The translations under genes were made by a program, and so were the position numbers. From positions 30,489 to 94,488 of the forward strand of contig DUPN01000100.1 in NCBI GenBank assembly GCA_012838305.1: a stretch of DNA of 64,000 nucleotides, in the 5' to 3' direction. The notes beneath the pieces were generated by a model that was not told where the DNA came from, did no database searches, and worked only from the letters and a program-made list of their open reading frames with translations. The DNA comes from Bacillota bacterium (GTDB lineage Bacteria > Bacillota > Limnochordia > Darwinibacteriales > Darwinibacteriaceae). Positions 6,613 through 53,057 of the stretch are shown in pieces (position 1 is the first letter of the stretch; every line of letters begins with the position of its first letter).

Positions 6613-7301
6613 AGGCTTACCTCCGCTTCGCCTGCCATCATGCGCTCAAGCTCCCGGATGAGATTTCTGACATTCCTGTTCGACGCTGGACGCGCCAGCA
6701 TTTCGGCTGGAGTGAGCTCTTGGTTCCAATAGACTTGATTGGCATTGACACTGTTGTCGATGGAAGCCCCTTCCAGCGAGGCCCCAATAAAGGCGCCCTT
6801 GCTGATGGAGTAACTGTACATCACTGCATCAAGCGTGAGGTTGGTTCCAGCCTCTGCAGAGCGTCCCAAGGGACCGGCGGCCACGGAGAGGTTGCCGCCT
6901 AGGGTGATCTGACCTTCTTCCAGGCTGCGTAAACCTTCCTCGGCCGTCATCACCAGAACAAGGGAGGTTTTTTGGACGCCGATCTGCAGTCCATAGGAAA
7001 TGCCCTTCAGCTGCACGAAATACGGTCCATACCAGCGTTCTTGAGAGGGGTCATACTTGAGAACAACGCCCTCACCGTAGCGTCCTCCCAGGCCCAATCC
7101 TGCTTTAAGCACCGAAGGGAAAACGGCTACACCGCGGGTGTTTTGCAGTACATAGCGGAAGTGTTCTGCATCCGGCTGCTCCGCAATCTCCTGGAGCACC
7201 TGCACCGCTTCGTCTATGAGCTCCCCAGGGGCCTTTGTTGCGCCGGCTGCAGAGCTGATGATCAGCAGCAAACCTAAGGTTACAATAGCAATCTGTTTCA
7301 T
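6609..7301 (-). CDS. secreted SYLF (Ysc84-like) lipid-binding domain protein
   Basis: 230 aa. N-terminal signal peptide MKQIAIVTLGLLLIISSAAGA. GLGLGGRYGEGV and YSYSISKGAFIGASLEG blocks are typical of the SYLF/DUF500 domain. 4-nt overlap with luxS. Confidence 0.7.
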   Translation of the reverse strand: MKQIAIVTLGLLLIISSAAGATKAPGELIDEAVQVLQEIAEQPDAEHFRYVLQNTRGVAVFPSVLKAGLGLGGRYGEGVVLKYDPSQERWYGPYFVQLKGISYGLQIGVQKTSLVLVMTAEEGLRSLEEGQITLGGNLSVAAGPLGRSAEAGTNLTLDAVMYSYSISKGAFIGASLEGASIDNSVNANQVYWNQELTPAEMLARPASNRNVRNLIRELERMMAGEAEVSL

Positions 7302-7384
7302 CTGCTTTCCTCCTCACTGATGGTTTTCATCTTGGTTTAGGACAACCCTTTCCTGAATATACATGGGGAAAGGGAGGGGAGAAG

Positions 7385-8128
7385 ATGCATCTGTGGCATG
7401 TGTTCGTGCTGCCAAGGCGGCTCATGGGAACGATGCTCCTGGCTGTTGCCGTCCTGATCGCATTATCCGTATATTATACCTATCCTCTTGGCATTTACAC
7501 CCTGCGCTTGGTAAAGCAGGATATTCTGTATGACATTATGCTTGACCCCGGGCATGGAGGCATTGATCCAGGAGCGATTGGAGCCGGGGAGATCTACGAG
7601 AAACACTACGTTTTGGATATTGTGCTGCAGATGGCGGAAATCCTGCGCTCCCATGGACTCAAGGTGGGATTGACCAGGGAAACAGACCGCGATGTGAGCC
7701 ACCTTGTGAGTGAGGGTACACGGCATCGCAGAGATCTTCTAGGTCGGTTCAAGCTCATGGACCAGGCCCAGATGGGAATGAGTGTGCACACCAACTCCAC
7801 CAAGAACAAAGAAGAATCCGGAGCCATCGTCTTTTATATGAACGACCAGTATGTGGATGAAATCTACGCGCAAATCGTTCTGGAAGAACTGGAAAAGGTG
7901 CAGGTACTCAATGAACCTCGTCCCATTCCCCGCAGTACCCTCTTGCTCCTGAAGGCGAAACCGCCTGTGATCTTAGTTGAACTTGGCTTCATGTCCAACC
8001 CCACGGATCTGGCGAAGCTCGGGGATCCTGCTTTTCGCGGCAATGTGGCCCAGGCTCTCTGCAGCGGCATCCTGCGCTTTATCGATTGGCGCTATGGCGA
8101 GCAGAGCGAGTCCGGTTCACCCATCTGA
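7385..8128 (+). CDS. cwlD: N-acetylmuramoyl-L-alanine amidase, CwlD-like (germination-specific)
   Basis: 247 aa. N-terminal TM helix, then LDPGHGGIDPGA, SVHTNS and VELGFMSNP (Amidase_3 zinc ligands). The architecture matches B. subtilis CwlD. Confidence 0.72.
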   Translation: MHLWHVFVLPRRLMGTMLLAVAVLIALSVYYTYPLGIYTLRLVKQDILYDIMLDPGHGGIDPGAIGAGEIYEKHYVLDIVLQMAEILRSHGLKVGLTRETDRDVSHLVSEGTRHRRDLLGRFKLMDQAQMGMSVHTNSTKNKEESGAIVFYMNDQYVDEIYAQIVLEELEKVQVLNEPRPIPRSTLLLLKAKPPVILVELGFMSNPTDLAKLGDPAFRGNVAQALCSGILRFIDWRYGEQSESGSPI

Positions 8129-30859: not shown

Positions 30860-31094
30860 GGAGAGGACAAGGGTTGAAGAACTGCAGGCTGATCGAGTCC
30901 GATTCGAGCAGGAACTCTTGGAGCTGTCTCGTTTGGTTCATGACTACGAGACGAAAATTCACAACAATGTCAGAGAGAATAAAGAGCTAACCCGGAAGAA
31001 CAAGGAGCTGCAATGGGGATTTCGTGCCCTGCGCCGGGAGAACCAGTGGCTGAAGGAAGAGATTTTTAAGCTGAAGGGCAAACCATTAACTTAA
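30774..31094 (+). CDS. coiled-coil hypothetical protein
   Basis: A different frame overlapping the ArsR tail. Candidate TTG starts at 30735, 30768 and 30774, behind AGGGGGG. The C-terminal heptad-rich region reads ELQADRVRFEQELLELSRLVHDYETKIHNNVRENKELTRKNKELQ. Confidence 0.4.
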   Translation: MKDLKTLTGAPSLWTAVRLIWQAGLAAIRERTRVEELQADRVRFEQELLELSRLVHDYETKIHNNVRENKELTRKNKELQWGFRALRRENQWLKEEIFKLKGKPLT

Positions 31095-31097
31095 ACC

Positions 31098-31141
31098 GAG
31101 GAGTCAGGGTGCGGATAACGTGATCGACTCCTCTTTTTTTG
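31098..31141 (+). terminator. intrinsic terminator
   Basis: GAGGAGTC ... GACTCCTC stem followed by T8. Confidence 0.75.
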
Positions 31142-31169
31142 AGAAGGACAAAGCAGGGGAGTGGAGTAG

Positions 31170-31646
31170 ATGAATTCCAAAAAAATGGTCCTGACTGCAC
31201 TGTTAATTGCTGTGGTAACTGTGACAACCATGGTTGTCAACATCCCCCTGCCTGGAGTCAAGGGTTATGTCAATATCGGCGATACCGTTGTGCTTTTAGC
31301 AGGCTTGATCTTTGGACCCACTGTGGGGGCCACTTGCGGCGCCTTGGGATCCAGCCTCGCCGACCTCTTTTTGGGCTATGCCTACTGGGCGCCATGGACT
31401 TTTGTCATTAAGGGACTAGAAGGGTTCTTGGCAGGTTGGGTTGCGCAGCGTTATCGACGGGCCACAGCGCAGGGGGCTGTTTTGGCAGCGGTGATCATGG
31501 TCTTGGGCTATTTGGGTGTAGGCATCCTCTATTACGGCCTGGGGCCTGCCCTCGCCTCGCTTCCCGGGGATTTGACCCAAGGGGCCGTCAGCGTGGCTCT
31601 GGCCTTGCTTTCGGTTCGCCCCCTCAGGAAGTATTTAAGTTTGTAG
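31170..31646 (+). CDS. ECF transporter S component, substrate unknown
   Basis: 158 aa, 5 TM. NIGDTVVLLAGLIFGPTVGATCGALGSSLADL is typical of ECF S components. Confidence 0.65.
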   Translation: MNSKKMVLTALLIAVVTVTTMVVNIPLPGVKGYVNIGDTVVLLAGLIFGPTVGATCGALGSSLADLFLGYAYWAPWTFVIKGLEGFLAGWVAQRYRRATAQGAVLAAVIMVLGYLGVGILYYGLGPALASLPGDLTQGAVSVALALLSVRPLRKYLSL

Positions 31647-31658
31647 AGTGAAACAGGC

Positions 31659-31686
31659 ACATTTCCCCAGCTGCCATCATAGAATG
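31659..31686 (+). promoter_or_regulatory. candidate mother-cell (sigma-E/K type) promoter of sigK: AC-N17-CATAGAATG
   Basis: AC at 31659-31660 and CATAGAAT at 31678-31685, compared with the AC-N17-CATAnnnTA consensus recalled for sigma-K. Confidence 0.3.
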
Positions 31687-31722
31687 AAAAGCTTGAATTC
31701 CGGCAACGAGGGGGTCTAGCTT

Positions 31723-32070
31723 GTGTTATTTTCGCTACTTAGCGCCCTGGGTCTCTGGCTGGCCGAGGGAATCGGTTTCTTAACGGGTTTTGTCACCAGC
31801 GGGAGCGCCTTCCCCAAACCTCTTAGGCCCGAAGAGGAGAAGGAACTCTTAATGCAAAAAGAAGCAGGCGACGAAGGCGCGCGCAACATCCTCATTGAGC
31901 GGAACCTTCGCCTCGTAGCACATATTGTCAAGAAGTTCGATAACACCGGCGAAGACAGTGAAGACTTAATCTCCATCGGGGTAATCGGTTTGATTAAAGC
32001 GATCAACACCTTCAATCCGAGCAAAAACACCCGTTTGGCTACTTACGCAGCCAGGTGCATTGAGAATGAG
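31723..32070 (+). CDS. sigK: sporulation sigma factor SigK, 5' segment (pro-sequence and regions 1.2-2.4; spoIVCB-like), interrupted
   Basis: GTG start behind GAGGGGG. AFPKPL pro-sequence junction, [45 protein letters not shown]. After codon 116 the track ORF continues into 25 unrelated codons inside the element. Confidence 0.92.
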
Positions 32071-32081
32071 AATTCACTGTC
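32058..32081 (+). repeat. attL junction: CATTGAGAAT-GA-GAATTCACTGTC
   Basis: The sigK-side arm and the element-side arm flank the GA (32068-32069) of the shared GAGA core. Confidence 0.6.
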
Positions 32082-34377
32082 AAGCGGGGAGCCCAATCCG
32101 AATTTCTCCCCCCTCTTTGAGGGTGTGGATTTGCCCGTAAAGGAGTAGTTCGAAAGGCGAACCTTCGATCTGGCTCACCGCAACTTCGTTAGCGCTGACC
32201 CGAACGATTAAGTGGTGGCCGCGGAACAGGACTCTAAAGGAGTAACCATTCCACTTTGTGGGAGCAAAGGGCCTCAGTGAAAGGTGATCGTCTTCCATGC
32301 GCAGGCCGCCAAAGCCATAGACAACAGACATCCAGGTCCCTGCCATGCTCGTAATATGCAGACCGTCATCAGTATCGTTATTGTAATTATCCAGATCCAG
32401 CCGAGCAGTACGCAGATAGAGCTCGTAGGCTTTGCTTTTGTAGCCGATTTCAGCAGCCATAATCGCATAGACACAGGGTGACAACGACGATTCATGGACG
32501 GTCATAGGTTCATAAAAATCGAAGTTGCGTTTTTTTGTGTCCAAATCGTAGCGATCGCCGAAAAAGAAGAGTCCCTGCAGTACATCGGCCTGTTTAATGA
32601 AGCACGAACGCAAAATGCGATCCCAGGACCAGTGCTGGTTGAGGGGCAGTTCGCTGCGGGGGATTGCATCCACACTCAAGAGTTCCTTATCCATAAACCC
32701 ATCTTGCTGTGCAAAGACCCCCAGATCAGGCAGGAGGGGATAGTACATGTTCTGCACAATGTCTTCCCACATGTGGAGCTCCTTTGGATCCGGTCTCAAA
32801 TGACCCGGAATCTTGGCCCCTAGCTCTTCTAGGACCTCCAGGGTATATTCAAGGCACCAGGAGGCGATGCGGTTGGTGTACCAGTTGTTGTTGACATTGT
32901 TCTCATACTCATTGGGGCCGGTCACGCCCAAAATCATATAGACGCCCTTTCTAGGCTGAAACGTCACCCTGCTGGCCCAGAACCGGCAAATTTCTACCAG
33001 GACGTCCAGACCGTACTGGACGAGGTAGTCCTGATCGCCAGTGTAACGGACGTAGTTGAAAATGGCGTAGGCAATGGCGCCATTGCGGTGGATTTCCTCA
33101 AAGGTAATTTCCCATTCGTTATGGCACTCTTCGCCCGTCATGGTCACCATGGGGTAGAGGGCTCCTTTCAGCCCCAGCCTGGCCGCGTTTTCCTGCGCTT
33201 TTTCCAGATGATGATACCGATACATCAGCAGATTCCTGGCAATCTGGGGGTCCCGGGTGCTCAGATAGAAGGGGAGGCAATAGGCTTCCGTATCCCAGTA
33301 GGTGCTGCCGCCATATTTCTCGCCGGTGAATCCCTTCGGTCCAATATTGAGGCGGGGATCCTCGCCCGTATAGGTCTGATGCAGATGGAAAATGTTAAAG
33401 CGGATGCCTTGCTGGGCGGCCACATCACCGGTGATTTGGATATCGCTGTCCTCCCAAACCCGGGCCCATTGCGCGGCGTGGTCCTGGAATAGTTCGCTGT
33501 AGGGCCTTTTGTGTTGCTGCAAGAGGCCAATGGCCTGATCGGATACTGTCTGGGCCGGGTGATCGCGGCTCGTGGTCACAGCAACCACTTTCTCCAAACG
33601 AAGACTGTCTCCCCTCTGCAGTACTGTGCTGATTTCCCCCTGAGCATAGCGGGGGGAGGCAGTGTACGCAGCTTGGAGGTCCGTAACTTCCTGGTCGTTC
33701 AAGTAGAGAGAAAAGGAACTGGCCGCGGCCACCACAAAACCAGACTTCTTCGTCTCCATGGTAACCAGCTGCACACCGGGTGCGCTGGATTGGTCCAGTG
33801 CCTGCCAAAAGTCCTCTCCGTAATTTGCATCTTCATTGACAATATTTCCATCCAGATAGGGGGTGAAGGTGACGGCCGCCCCCTTGTTAGTGGGATCGTC
33901 TTCCAGAGTGATCTTGTAGCTGATACAAGCCAGCTCTCGCCGGGCTTTGCTCACGAAACGCCGGGTGAGAATGGAGAACGTGCGTCCGTCGCCGTCGACT
34001 ACCTCGAAGAGGCGGGTTAACTCTCCCTTGTGCATATCCAGGGTTCGACGAAACCTCGTTGGTTTCCAGTAATGGAGATCAAGGGGAGTCCCTCCCAGAT
34101 GCACGTTGATGCCGATAAAATTCACGGCATTGAGCACTTTGGCAAAATACTCAGGATAGCCCACCTTCCACCAACCCACTACAGTGCGATCGGGATAGTA
34201 GACTCCGGCCATATAGGTGCCCTGCAGACTGTTACCGCTGTATGCTTCTTCGAAATTACCGCGCATGCCCATATAGCCATTGCCGAGGGACATCAAACTC
34301 TCAACCACCCGGTTTTGCTCTGGACGGAATCCATCCTCAATGACCTGCCACTCATGGGTCTCTATGAATCGTTTCAA
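32080..34377 (-). CDS. GH65 family disaccharide phosphorylase (maltose/kojibiose/trehalose phosphorylase type)
   Basis: 765 aa, TTG start behind [34 protein letters not shown] (catalytic Glu block) and full-length GH65 architecture. The stop codon is 9 bp from the att core. Confidence 0.9.
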
Positions 34378-34469
34378 CGGTACCCCTCCTCATATAGCTG
34401 GGTCGATCATCATACTTTTCCTCTGGCAGCAATCGTTTGCACAAGAAAACAGAAAGGAGGCAGGAAACC

Positions 34470-35126
34470 TTAGGCAGGGAGAATTCGCAGCAGATCCTGC
34501 AGGCCAAAGGAGGCAAAACCCGTGATCACATAATGGGCCTGGGCGAGGGTGTGCTCGTCGCCTACACCGATGGCCACCATCTGGGCTCGCAGCGCCGCTT
34601 CGATCCCGGCCTGGGCATCTTCAAAGACTACCGCAGATTGGGGAGCAATGTCCAAAAGGGATGCGGAGAGTGCAAACACTTCCGGATCGGGCTTGGCTTT
34701 TGACACTAGATTCCCGTCTACGATCAAGTCGAAGTAGTCTGTCAGTTCCACTCTCTCCAGGATGGTACGGGCATTTTTGCTGGCAGAACCAAGGCTGATC
34801 TTGATACCGGCGCTTTTCAGTTCGTCCAGGAAGTCCAACACACCGGGGAGTATTTCCGAAGCGTCCATTTGGGTGATGTACTCCACATACCAGGTGTTCT
34901 TGGCCTCGGCCAGTCTTGCCTTCTCTTCGTCAGTCCTCTTTTGCCCTCCGATCTCCAGTAGTATATCCAAGGAACGCATCCGGCTCACGCCCTTGAGACG
35001 CTCATTATCCTCTTCATGAAACGCGATTCCGATGGTCTCACCCAGACGTTTCCAAGCCAAATAGTGATACTTGGCAGTGTCCACAACCACTCCGTCCAGG
35101 TCAAAAATGGCCAACTGTAAATCCAT
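34470..35126 (-). CDS. pgmB: beta-phosphoglucomutase
   Basis: AIFDLDGVVVDTAKYHYLAWKRL, LGSASKNA, SKAKPDPEVF and FEDAQAGIEA closely follow L. lactis beta-PGM. Start set to ATG 35126 (AAGAGGAGG RBS) rather than the longer track ORF. Confidence 0.9.
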   Translation of the reverse strand: MDLQLAIFDLDGVVVDTAKYHYLAWKRLGETIGIAFHEEDNERLKGVSRMRSLDILLEIGGQKRTDEEKARLAEAKNTWYVEYITQMDASEILPGVLDFLDELKSAGIKISLGSASKNARTILERVELTDYFDLIVDGNLVSKAKPDPEVFALSASLLDIAPQSAVVFEDAQAGIEAALRAQMVAIGVGDEHTLAQAHYVITGFASFGLQDLLRILPA

Positions 35127-35205
35127 GGACAGACCTCCTCTTTGCCCCATTATATCATGATTGGATTTTTCCGGCATAGTCTTGATCAAAAAGAGGTGGT
35201 AGAAG

Positions 35206-36039
35206 TTGATTGCCATCTATGCCCGGGTGAGTACAGAGGAACAGGCTAAACATGGTTTTAGCATTCCAGCTCAAATTAGGGAGTGTCAGAACCTGATTGG
35301 TCACAGGCAGGCCCTGGTCTTCTCTGACCAGGGTGTTTCCGGGGAGACTCTGATCAGACCCGCCTTAGAGGAGCTGCGCCAAAGGATCGAAGTAGGCGAG
35401 ATCAGTGCCGTCTACTGCCTGGATCCTGATCGTCTCTCCCGCAAACTCCTGCACCAGCTCTTACTGACGGAGGAGTGGGAGCGGAAGGGGATAGCCCTGC
35501 ATTTCGTGCATGGTGACTACAAGAAGACGCCGGAGGGAAATCTCTTTTATGCACTCAGGGGAGCAATTTCCGAATTCGAGAAGGCCAAGATTACCGAGCG
35601 CATGTGCCGTGGACGCAGGGAAAAGGCACGGCAGGGCCGGGTACTTAGGGACTTTCAAATCTATGGGTATGACTTTGATAGTCAACATGAACAGCTGATA
35701 ATCAATGGGAGGGAAGCGCAAACAGTGCAGCGCATCTTCCACTCTATCGCTACCGCCAAACCTGGAATGGAAAGCATATCGGCCATCGCCAGGACTCTGA
35801 CCAGGGAGGGGGTACCCACCAAACGAGGGGCCAAGATCTGGCATCGCCAGGTGGTCAGGCAGATTCTCAGTAACCGTACCTACCTGGGGGAATTCTACCA
35901 GAATAAGTGGGATGCATCAGGTGCTCGGGTTCGGCTGCGTCCCCGAGCCGAGTGGATTCTGATTCCCTGCCCGCGGATCATTGATCCGCAGCTCTTTGGG
36001 GAGGTCCAGGAGGTTCTGTCAGTGAACTCGAGATCTTAA
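35206..36039 (+). CDS. serine recombinase (SpoIVCA-like) with only the catalytic and recombinase domains, 277 aa
   Basis: TTG start behind GAGGTGG. IAIYARVSTEEQ (Ser nucleophile), CLDPDRLSR, LRGAISEFEKAKITER (helix E), then recombinase-domain blocks YGYDF, RIFHSI, WHRQVVRQILSNRTYLGE and PRIIDPQLFGEVQEVL. It ends where the zinc-ribbon domain normally begins. Confidence 0.85.
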   Translation: MIAIYARVSTEEQAKHGFSIPAQIRECQNLIGHRQALVFSDQGVSGETLIRPALEELRQRIEVGEISAVYCLDPDRLSRKLLHQLLLTEEWERKGIALHFVHGDYKKTPEGNLFYALRGAISEFEKAKITERMCRGRREKARQGRVLRDFQIYGYDFDSQHEQLIINGREAQTVQRIFHSIATAKPGMESISAIARTLTREGVPTKRGAKIWHRQVVRQILSNRTYLGEFYQNKWDASGARVRLRPRAEWILIPCPRIIDPQLFGEVQEVLSVNSRS

Positions 36040-36041
36040 TG
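36018..36041 (+). repeat. attR junction: GTCAGTGAACTC-GA-GATCTTAATG
   Basis: The element-side arm lies inside the recombinase 3' codons. The sigK-side arm contains the recombinase TAA and the sigK codons ILM. Confidence 0.6.
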
Positions 36042-36386
36042 CATCTGCGCACCACAAAGCGGGTCCGTCAGGAAATCAAACTTTACGAGCCCATTGGCTC
36101 GGACCGGGACGGCAATGAGATCAGCCTGATGGATATTCTCAGTTCCGATGAAGACGAGGTTTTAGACACCGTGGTTTTGAACATGGACCGCAGTCTCTTA
36201 AAGGACCGTTTTCACTGTTTATCCCCGCGGGAACAAACGGTATTGGAATTAAGATTCGGTCTAGGCGATCATGAAAAGCTGACCCAGCGGCAGATTGGCC
36301 GTCATCTCGGGATCTCCCGTTCCTACGTCTCCCGCATCGAAAAGAGGGCTTTGGGCAAACTACTGCATGAAATGGGACCGTCTTAA
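36033..36386 (+). CDS. sigK: sporulation sigma factor SigK, 3' segment (regions 3-4; spoIIIC-like)
   Basis: (I)LMHLRTTKR..., LYEPIGSDRDGNEISLMDIL, and the region 4.2 HTH TQRQIGRHLGISRSYVSRIEKRALGKL. It continues the frame of the 5' segment after element removal. Confidence 0.92.
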   Translation: MLMHLRTTKRVRQEIKLYEPIGSDRDGNEISLMDILSSDEDEVLDTVVLNMDRSLLKDRFHCLSPREQTVLELRFGLGDHEKLTQRQIGRHLGISRSYVSRIEKRALGKLLHEMGPS

Positions 36387-36409
36387 CTGCCAAGTTAAGG
36401 ACGTTTTTT
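36379..36409 (+). terminator. intrinsic terminator of sigK
   Basis: CGTCTTAAC-tgccaa-GTTAAGGACG (one bulge) followed by T6. The stem includes the sigK stop codon. Confidence 0.6.
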
Positions 36410-36479
36410 CCAGGGCACATACAGCTGGGGCTAGATCTATGGTATAATTGGTTGAAATCAAGAAAACGGAGTTGCACTG

Positions 36480-37016
36480 ATGAATATGCTGGTTCCAGAC
36501 GTGATTTGTGAGAGTGTCTTTGCCATTGACTTTGGCCAGTTGAAAAACCGGGGGATTCGCGGCCTCTTAATTGACATTGACAACACTTTGGTCCCCTGGG
36601 GTGAGCCTCAGATGGAAGAGGCGTTTGTGGCCTGGGTTAAGAGGGCTAAGGAAGAGGGGTTCGCGCTCTGTTTGGTTTCCAATGCCATCAAAAACCGGGC
36701 CCAGAGCTTTGCCGCACTTTTGGAGATTCCCGCTGTGGGACGAGCATTGAAGCCCTTAGGGCGCGCTTTCCGCCGGGGGATGCAGGAACTGGGCCTATCT
36801 CCCAAGGAAGTAGCGGTTGTGGGCGATCAGCTCTTCACCGATGTCCTCGGCGGCAACCGCCTGGGCATTTACACAATTCTCATCAATCCCTTAAGCCGCA
36901 GTGAGCTGGGGACAACGAAATTGGTGCGCAGAATGGAATGCAGAGCGCTGGATCGCCTGGTAAAGCAGGGGAAGGTCAGCAAACAGTCGCTGCAAATCCG
37001 GCGAGGGGGCCAATAG
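36480..37016 (+). CDS. yqeG: YqeG family HAD-IIIA phosphatase
   Basis: 178 aa. LLIDIDNTLVPWG and VGDQLFTDVLGGN, with the conserved position upstream of yqeH. Confidence 0.85.
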   Translation: MNMLVPDVICESVFAIDFGQLKNRGIRGLLIDIDNTLVPWGEPQMEEAFVAWVKRAKEEGFALCLVSNAIKNRAQSFAALLEIPAVGRALKPLGRAFRRGMQELGLSPKEVAVVGDQLFTDVLGGNRLGIYTILINPLSRSELGTTKLVRRMECRALDRLVKQGKVSKQSLQIRRGGQ

Positions 37017-52376: not shown

Positions 52377-52382
52377 TGAATC

Positions 52383-52995
52383 AACCTAAAGGTGAATGGC
52401 GCAGTATTCTAGTCATCAACCTAATTCTTGAAAGCGGACCTAAAAAGCCGTTGAGGGCACATCGATGAAGTCTTTGGTGGTGGCTTCCGACGCCCAGTCG
52501 GGGGTTGCTGCTGAGGGTTAAGGTTAGAGGGCGATCTGCAAGGGCATGCAGGCGTTGACCCTCTTTCCACGGAGACCCATGACTGTGGAAACATGGAGAA
52601 CGTGTTTCTACGGCTTGGGATTAAACCTGCACGCGATACGTATTCTCAGCTTGGTCGTACATCAGTGTTGGGTGCAGCGTAGCCTGTCTTGCGTGGTGAT
52701 CGGGGGATAGCGGTTATGGGTAAGGTTCTCCGGCCAGAGAACACTGCCCGTCGCAGCAGCGAAACACCCTTGAAACCTTCACTGCAAAAGAGACTAGAGA
52801 ATTTGGATTCGATGCCGAGGAAAACTCCTAGACTGTTTCTCTTGGAGAAGGTGGAATGGGGATTACGGTGTGGTCTAAGTGGTAATCCAGCCTCTGCTAT
52901 GGTGACAAGCGAAAAGATCGGAAAGGGGAAACCGCCAGTCGCGGTGACGGGCTGGAAGATCTTTGGGAAAACCTGCTGGACCTAAGCCACAATCT
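52383..52995 (+). ncRNA. ole: probable OLE (ornate, large, extremophilic) RNA; ends approximate
   Basis: About 0.65 kb without credible coding capacity between ispA and a small 4-TM gene preceding dxs, which is the published OLE/oapA context. Nested helices are visible, e.g. AGAGGG 52526-52531 / CCCTCT 52559-52564 enclosing CTGCA 52536-52540 / TGCAG 52547-52551. Not verified against a covariance model. Confidence 0.65.
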
Positions 52996-53057
52996 TTACT
53001 CATTTCACTGCCATTCACCTTAGTGTTACAACATAGGAGTATTGCCAAGGAGCGCTC

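Follow-up and report, generated by a model that had tools for sequence, protein, structure and literature searches.

The stretch of DNA analysed here, 64,000 nucleotides of contig DUPN01000100.1 from a Bacillota bacterium (hereafter the window), harbors the pro-sigma-K gene sigK in two parts, separated by an intervening element of 3,962 bp (32070-36031, counting one copy of the GA dinucleotide found at both ends). The 5' part, equivalent to spoIVCB (31723-32069, plus strand), starts with a GTG codon, encodes the pro-sequence and region 2 and ends with ...CIEN followed by GA, and the open reading frame (ORF) to which it belongs (31723-32148, plus strand) comprises 116 SigK-like residues followed by 25 codons without relation to sigK. 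The 3' part, equivalent to spoIIIC (36032-36386, plus strand), encodes regions 3-4 and is closed by the stop codon at 36384-36386; the corresponding ORF (36039-36386, plus strand) has the N-terminus MHLRTTKR and contains region 4 in the form of ISRSYVSRIEKRAL. Between the two parts lie genes for a GH65 glycoside phosphorylase and a beta-phosphoglucomutase, both on the minus strand, and, at the edge next to the sigK 3' part, a plus-strand gene for a serine recombinase of the SpoIVCA family.

A GAGA tetranucleotide is present at both breakpoints (32068-32071 and 36030-36033), and in silico deletion of the 3,962 bp yields ...ATT GAG AAT GAG ATC TTA ATG CAT..., an ORF of 702 nt encoding 233 aa. 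With 329.5 bits the joined protein exceeded the cut-off (298.65) of TIGR02846, the NCBIfam SigK equivalog model, and it also passed NF004471 (333.1 bits), with the SigE models staying far under their cut-offs and both Sigma70_r2 and Sigma70_r4 found in the protein. The split of sigK by a 3,962-bp element, which had been proposed in a preliminary description of this DNA, was thus re-derived with its ORFs, its GAGA repeats and the 233-aa join, the latter now passing TIGR02846. Since in the related loci L006, L012 and L032 the two junctions have only the first GA, that of AAT-GA, in common, the crossover dinucleotide can be assigned to GA (32068-32069 and 36030-36031), as would be expected for a serine recombinase. 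Deletion at this GA gave the in-frame junction CIENEILM(H/Q)L in 25 out of 25 independent loci holding both ends, and the sigK halves showed ratios of nonsynonymous to synonymous substitution (dN/dS) of 0.01-0.05 between species. A misassembled or chimeric contig as the source of the junctions has a negligible probability: some related scaffolds are indeed chimeric (e.g., an N-gap in L005 and a foreign downstream flank in L003), but the same junctions recur base-exact in more than 25 independent assemblies (ENA, NCBI, JGI, Logan), which diverge from one another at the species level and have conserved flanks to the left and right of the element.

The ends of the element have the organization of recombinase attachment sites. 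The attL site (32054-32083) consists of the B arm GGTGCATTGAGAAT, the crossover GA and the P' arm GAATTCACTGTCAA, and the attR site (36016-36045) of the P arm CTGTCAGTGAACTC, the crossover GA and the B' arm GATCTTAATGCATC. When the P arm cTGTCAGTGAACTC (36016-36029) is compared with the reverse complement of the P' arm (32070-32083), TTGACAGTGAATTC, 11 of 14 positions match, and the outer, sigK-derived arms form a second dyad (B GCATTgAGA, B' GCATTaAGA). CAkTGA is found in each of the four half-sites, at positions -10 to -5 relative to the crossover, and the 13-mer TGTCAGTGAAYTC, allowing up to 3 mismatches, occurs in two copies only within 31000-37000, both abutting a GA dinucleotide and inverted relative to each other. 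After excision the predicted attB is CATTGAGAATGAGATCTTAATG. No spare DNA is left at either end of the element, as the GH65 stop codon (TGA, minus strand, 32080-32082) lies inside the P' arm and the recombinase ORF runs through the P arm to a TAA stop that arises from the Leu and Met codons of sigK. The earlier view that both arms are embedded in coding sequence holds.

The recombinase stop TAA overlaps the ATG of ...ILMHL (TTAATG, 36036-36041), and transcripts of the recombinase gene would therefore run into a potentially translatable sigK 3' half. One alternative reading is that no rearrangement takes place, and that separate region 2 and region 3-4 polypeptides, the latter produced by translational coupling via TAATG, reassemble on RNA polymerase. 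We regard this as very improbable: the stop/start overlap and the two intact ORFs would suit such a model, but the conserved sigK codons I-L-M already prescribe both ATG and TAA, the overlap is absent in relatives with longer recombinases, and the dyad att arms, the catalytically intact recombinase and the strict frame of the junction would be left unexplained.

The most unusual feature of the element is the recombinase itself (35206-36039, plus strand), which with 277 aa has about half the normal length. It comprises a catalytic domain (Pfam Resolvase, residues 2-145), an alpha-E helix and a recombinase domain (Pfam Recombinase, residues 170-272) representing the first DNA-binding domain (DBD1), and nothing further. 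The catalytic domain matched PF00239 with 116 bits and contains the invariant motifs YARVSTEEQ and DPDRLSR, and the recombinase domain was matched over model positions 3-100 of 102 of PF07508. The second DNA-binding domain (DBD2), i.e., the zinc ribbon with its coiled coil, is not present, the ORF ending at the DBD1/DBD2 boundary and PF13408 giving no match. With PF07508 as its C-terminal domain in place of the helix-turn-helix of resolvases, the protein does not classify as a small serine recombinase. The NCBIfam recombinase models CcrA, CcrB, CcrC and XisF (442-558 aa) aligned over their first 200-280 positions only, and of the 545-aa SPbeta integrase only residues 63-293 were aligned. An AlphaFold model (pLDDT 81) shows the catalytic fold, a long alpha-E helix (109-142) and a folded C-terminal domain (155-275), and its best matches in the PDB were the SPbeta, Bxb1 and phiC31 integrases, with approximately half of each target covered. 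In the 64-kb window, tblastn with three C-terminal halves (E<0.05) detected neither a displaced zinc-ribbon/coiled-coil remnant nor a second recombinase.

Recombinase homologs of similar length (275-294 aa, hereafter short forms) number in the dozens, with 62-78% identity and several source-labelled Limnochordia. By inspecting gene contexts and scanning a set with a single genome for each GTDB species, we gathered 23 further species-level loci from metagenome-assembled genomes (MAGs) of Bacillota/Limnochordia, many of them from anaerobic-digester assemblies. In all loci the gene order is sigK-5', GH65 (where present), beta-phosphoglucomutase, recombinase and sigK-3', and the flanks are syntenic, with TldD/PmbA and ECF-S genes upstream and yqeG, yqeH, an M24 peptidase gene, efp and the spoIIIA operon downstream. 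Homologous elements at the same site in 25 loci range from 1,618 to 4,653 bp and form a graded series with respect to the recombinase. At one end stands L012 (4,653 bp, GH65 present) with a recombinase of 456 aa possessing zinc ribbon and coiled coil; L034 has the same 456-aa form, the left element end lying off the contig. In L011/L030 and L031 (4,328-4,408 bp, GH65 present) the recombinase has 378-380 aa and precisely the coiled coil is missing, and a coiled-coil-less recombinase (385-aa ORF as called) is also found in L029 (1,932 bp, GH65 absent). The remaining elements encode short forms, either together with GH65 (the window and 14 others, 3,962-4,185 bp) or without it (L006, L032, L033 and L035, 1,618-1,633 bp). 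The window element is the smallest of those bearing GH65. Originally suggested to be, if active, one of the most minimal intervening elements of sporulation, it is small, yet smaller ones exist: published skin elements reach down to 2.6 kb and its own relatives to 1.6 kb.

The series is paralleled by the presence of a possible directionality factor. Within the Limnochordia-like clade, an ORF of 44-58 aa resembling the directionality factor Skr (M.[IV]....G.......C..YL) was confined to L012, L011/L030 and L031, with neither L029 nor the window nor any other short-form locus containing it. A 30-aa ORF in the window (MIGFFRHSLDQKEVVEVDCHLCPGEYRGTG, 35157-35249, plus strand) lies in the frame used by the Skr-like ORFs of the relatives, resembles them only in the tail that overlaps the recombinase gene and has its ATG within a promoter motif (see below); it is thus more readily seen as the remnant of a reading frame than as a gene. 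Outside the clade, the next-closest recombinases are full-length proteins with 52-58% identity over 276 aa from Brevibacillus, Paenibacillus, Aneurinibacillus, Fictibacillus, Thermoactinomycetaceae and others. Most of them adjoin a sigK 3' half, their elements (3.0-10.2 kb) are inserted at an identical sigK codon and GA, and many are accompanied by a 64-73 aa ORF that lies in the +1 frame and runs across the recombinase start; the one of L053 has 64 aa and an overlap of 101 nt, which equals the published description of B. subtilis Skr (PMC6957869). The skin-like nature of the window element, as initially put forward, is supported by the shared sigK codon of SpoIVCA-type elements, the homologous recombinase at the element edge and the dyad att arms. 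Two scaffolds of GCA_900198705.1, L003 and L005, comprise a recombinase gene and a sigK 3' half with one foreign side each, an N-gap upstream in L005 and a non-syntenic downstream flank in L003. A third sigK of this assembly (L010) is intact, and the assembly gives the impression of being chimeric or of combining several organisms.

The short recombinases appear to be maintained as functional proteins. From the RVSTE motif to the stop codon the short forms contain no internal stop, RVSTE and DPDRLSR are kept, and Nei-Gojobori dN/dS values between species are 0.033-0.089 at a dS of 0.8-2.3, comparable to those of the sigK halves and of the cargo genes. That the protein is kept while synonymous sites are near saturation argues that it is under selection. 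In L019 (7990-8005), the usual GTG start is followed by a TAA (GTG AGG TAA CTG ATT GCC), so that a CTG or ATT start would be needed, which could be attenuation, early decay or an error of the MAG assembly.

To follow the history of the element, neighbor-joining trees were calculated for the recombinase and for four concatenated flanking host proteins, the latter rooted with L094, a more distant Limnochordia locus with an intact sigK. These are distance trees on MAGs, and deep nodes inside clade B are poorly supported. Because the recombinase and host-protein trees are largely congruent, the element appears to be inherited vertically. In the host tree, the full-length and coiled-coil-less forms lie between two groups of short forms, implying that the zinc-ribbon domain was lost at least twice; the differing C-terminal fusion points (...VLSVNSRS, ...ARVSVKLRF and ...SKIRH, the last with its stop inside the arm) agree with repeated loss. 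The Skr-like ORF was lost together with the zinc-ribbon domain, and GH65 was also lost twice. The check for an empty site suggested in the preliminary description had a positive outcome: an intact, syntenic sigK is present in the related lineage L008/L009, and since this lineage is nested among element carriers (200 out of 200 bootstrap replicates), the element must have been removed cleanly at least once.

The attP arms are conserved with either GH65 or pgmB as the neighboring gene, in short-form species only to approximately 14 bp. In the outer arms, dyad symmetry amounted to 3.7-4 out of 10 positions in four long-form loci vs 2.3 out of 10 in the short forms (chance 2.5), which would be suggestive of a zinc-ribbon footprint in the long forms, the loci being too few to count.

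The cargo of the element is metabolic and not phage-like. The 765-aa GH65 protein (32080-34377, minus strand) contains Glyco_hydro_65N, 65m and 65C, reached 1138.9 bits against NF010380 and belongs to the maltose/kojibiose/trehalose-phosphorylase family; it is intact in the relatives carrying it, with dN/dS of about 0.09-0.10. The 218-aa beta-phosphoglucomutase (pgmB, 34470-35126, minus strand; TIGR01990, 243 bits at a cut-off of 189) has its true start at the ATG 35126-35124, start and ribosome binding site being conserved in the alignment of the relatives, and pgmB was found in every relative. Between short-form species, dN/dS of the cargo genes is 0.06-0.11. The GC content of the element (53.4%) gives no foreign signature against that of the window (54.0%), which fits a long residence. 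In L026 (approximately 7272-7904, minus strand), the pgmB tblastn match has no open frame of at least 180 aa, unlike in every other locus, and may reflect a disruption or a sequencing error.

Promoter-like motifs precede sigK, pgmB and the recombinase gene. Upstream of sigK, a candidate promoter (31652-31686, plus strand) consists of AACAGGCACA, a spacer of 17 nt and CATAGAATG, the latter a putative mother-cell CATA-type -10 motif, and the motif is conserved in 23 aligned loci (GaACAGGCACA...TCATAgAATaa). Between pgmB and the recombinase gene lies a divergent promoter region (35149-35182), in which ATTATATCA reads as TGATATAAT on the minus strand, an extended -10 motif for pgmB, and in which TCATGAT, 13 nt and CATAGTCT form the candidate recombinase promoter on the plus strand. 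The pattern ccATTATAwCATG-N13/14-rCATAGnnT is kept in all 25 species amid otherwise variable intergenic DNA. Its first block, read on the minus strand, is TGnTATAAT at the right position for pgmB, and its second block is a CATA-type -10 like those upstream of spoIIIAA (GTCATAnC-N14-CATAnAGT) and sigK (ACAGGCACA-N17-CATAgAATaa) in the same genomes, which served as the reference instead of a literature consensus. In the short-form loci and L029, only about 30 nt separate the motif from the recombinase start codon. A scan for sigma-70 promoter and terminator consensus sequences gave matches no more frequent than in shuffled sequence. The pgmB and recombinase promoters seem to stand back-to-back and to overlap within approximately 35 bp (35127-35205 in the window and likewise in all related loci), so that vegetative expression of the cargo and sporulation-specific expression of the recombinase could possibly interfere.

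Taken together, we consider it probable that an uncultured Limnochordia-like spore-former carries here an active, vertically inherited and domesticated mini-skin element, and that a minimal recombinase independent of any directionality factor excises it in the mother cell. The sequences demonstrate the anatomy of the element, its homology and conservation, the selection acting on it, the joint loss of the directionality factor and the existence of an empty site; we infer expression timing, catalytic self-sufficiency, excision itself and activity, the latter from sequence conservation. In this scenario, a CATA-type (sigma-E/K-like) promoter would turn on the 277-aa recombinase in the mother cell, dimers of which would bind the four CAkTGA half-sites via DBD1 and cut the GA dinucleotides of attL and attR; the 3,962-bp segment would then leave as a non-replicating circle, and ...CIENE would be joined to ILMHL..., resulting in an intact pro-sigma-K gene. 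A directionality factor would not be needed, because the zinc-ribbon/coiled-coil module, which provides discrimination of attP from attB, the block of attL x attR recombination and the docking of the factor, has been lost; the asymmetric GA, the intramolecular geometry of the sites and loss of the circle would remain as the sole determinants of direction. Such a reduction is conceivable since a resident element need only leave the chromosome of a terminal mother cell, making integration and direction control dispensable. The coiled coil would have been lost first, then the directionality factor and finally the whole zinc-ribbon domain, leaving a transcription-gated deletase. The GH65/pgmB operon would be inherited via the uncut chromosome of the spore, and its usefulness would select against germ-line loss; cargo as the explanation for the long retention of the element is speculation. 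For the broader claim, that a large serine integrase was pared at least two times in one lineage to a directionality-factor-free, excision-only enzyme of 275-294 aa with sites of approximately 30 bp that still performs a developmental rearrangement, we see the chances as about even.

The loss of the module can be interpreted in light of studied integrases, in which DBD1 binds all half-sites alike and the placement of DBD2 tells attP from attB, and in which the coiled coil blocks attL x attR recombination until a directionality factor binds DBD2 and the hinge of the coiled coil (PMC11722253). Without its coiled coil, LI integrase recombined attL x attR and attP x attB alike and factor-free, though weakly (PMC10754689, PMC5499577). 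Several points speak against a self-sufficient and active short recombinase. The LI integrase without coiled coil is only ~2% efficient and the coiled coil of phiC31 integrase is essential (PMC10754689, PMC5499577); moreover, the zinc-ribbon domain supplies much of the DNA affinity in studied integrases, and a protein without the whole domain may be too weak alone. Accessory half-sites of the res type that could drive synapsis were absent from 31-37 kb. The assignment of the CATA-type motifs to mother-cell sigma-E/K is an attribution by motif resemblance only. As the search for a helper recombinase covered the 64-kb window and the genomes are incomplete, a second sigK or a helper may lie elsewhere. 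In JGI metagenome contigs, there were no matches to the attP junction (degenerate TGTCAKTKAAHTCGAGARTTCAMTGTCA) or to the attB of the window species, and of the 120 intact SigK proteins compared, none came closer to a joined SigK than 88% identity (P0123 vs L021). This match was rejected as an excised allele, such proteins belonging to other species. Excision products would be expected to be missing if only dying mother cells underwent excision, but their absence is equally compatible with no excision.

Part of these points would be accommodated if excision took place during sporulation but the short recombinase required a partner encoded elsewhere, e.g., a full-length paralog in mixed complexes, a separate zinc-ribbon protein or a host factor for DNA bending or synapsis. 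The importance of zinc ribbon and coiled coil in studied integrases, where they are in part essential, would be in line with such a partner, as would the many COG1961 recombinases that Firmicute genomes often hold (bioRxiv 10.1101/2022.02.25.481979) and the fact that no accessory sites were found to replace coiled-coil-mediated synapsis. Nevertheless, the window contains neither a zinc-ribbon remnant nor a second recombinase, and the loss of the zinc ribbon at least twice, along with the Skr-like ORF, suggests that the module became dispensable and was not outsourced. The ~14-bp conservation of the short-form attP arms and the chance-level symmetry of their outer arms also speak against a partner. 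We therefore hold a partner-dependent excision to be rather unlikely, though it is the alternative to be taken most seriously.

Still less likely, and in our view doubtful, is that the element is a fossil, with sigK permanently split, the host asporogenous or relying on another sigK copy and the recombinase kept for another role. The excision products not seen in public assemblies, the truncated recombinase and the stop following the usual start codon in L019 would be in accordance with this. However, the sigK halves, the in-frame junction, the att arms, the catalytic residues and the promoter motif have all been kept despite saturated synonymous sites, and a dead gene would have decayed. In addition, the spoIIIA operon and other adjoining sporulation genes are intact, and the empty-site lineage shows that precise removal has occurred.

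The window element can be compared with several known systems. The skin element of Bacillus subtilis, excised by SpoIVCA with Skr, likewise splits sigK, has the recombinase gene at its edge and restores sigK upon excision, and there a sigma-E promoter drives recombinase and Skr (PMC6957869). Bacilli members of the window's recombinase family share the sigK codon and the GA crossover, the att sites of B. subtilis not being among the loci compared. The differences are substantial: the B. subtilis skin comprises 48 kb of prophage-like DNA and a recombinase of ~500 aa with zinc ribbon and coiled coil, whereas the window element has 3.96 kb with a sugar-phosphorylase operon, a 277-aa recombinase without this module and no Skr-like ORF. 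In the survey of Galperin et al. 2022 (bioRxiv 10.1101/2022.02.25.481979), skin elements of 15 species had 2.6-48 kb and 2-67 genes, and the only common gene was the SpoIVCA-like recombinase gene, usually located directly upstream of the sigK 3' half as in the window; yet none was from Limnochordia, spoIVCA had a length of ~1.5 kb compared to 0.83 kb in the window, and the 1.6-kb sister elements fall below the 2.6-kb minimum. The skinCd element of Clostridioides difficile is a developmentally excised sigK element with a large serine recombinase (Serrano et al. 2016, PMC5025042) but depends on a directionality factor, of which the window element has none; the recombination units of B. subtilis and C. 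difficile differ, with attB in different regions (PMC6957869). Like the window element, gin in Bacillus cereus gerE (GirC and GirX) is a non-prophage element in a sporulation gene; a site-specific recombinase excises gin during sporulation, as proposed for the window element, but gin has another target gene, needs the accessory GirX and carries three recombinase genes (PMC5595907).

On the protein level, the coiled-coil deletion of the Listeria LI integrase provides a functional parallel to the natural relatives with 378-385 aa; that mutant was made in the laboratory and retained its zinc ribbon, whereas in the window protein the whole domain is gone as a product of natural selection. Small serine recombinases have in common with the window protein a catalytic and a single DNA-binding domain, half-sites of ~12-14 bp and deletion between direct repeats, the last as predicted for the window protein. 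They differ in using a helix-turn-helix instead of the ~100-aa PF07508 domain and in their accessory sites or enhancer, which were not detected in the window. Functionally the element thus belongs with the skin-type elements, while its recombinase, missing DBD2 with the coiled coil, departs from large serine recombinases in a defining feature.

These findings would extend programmed sigK reconstitution to Limnochordia-like bacteria and describe an ancient, vertically inherited, non-viral intervening element with a housekeeping-type sugar operon. They also provide a natural experiment on which integrase domains are needed for excision and an evolutionary series for the model of coiled coil and directionality factor. 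If the proposed interpretation is true, the zinc-ribbon/coiled-coil module would be a device for integration and direction control that is not needed for catalysis or site recognition, the clade would retain the intermediates (full-length with Skr, coiled-coil-less with and without Skr, zinc-ribbon-less), and the 1.6-kb relatives would be the smallest developmentally excised elements known. Moreover, a 277-aa, unidirectional and cofactor-free deletase with short sites would, if working, be attractive for engineering.

Two observations concern the wider surroundings of the element. Upstream of sigK, the interval between the ECF-S genes varies by lineage (L012, L095 and similar loci), with nrdD, its activase and a cell-wall hydrolase gene present in some and absent in others, so the sigK neighborhood is not completely static. 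Further downstream in the window, an OLE (ornate large extremophilic) RNA was identified at 52380-53030 (plus strand; RF01071, 465 bits, model positions 1-616 of 616), which was the sole Rfam match in the window.

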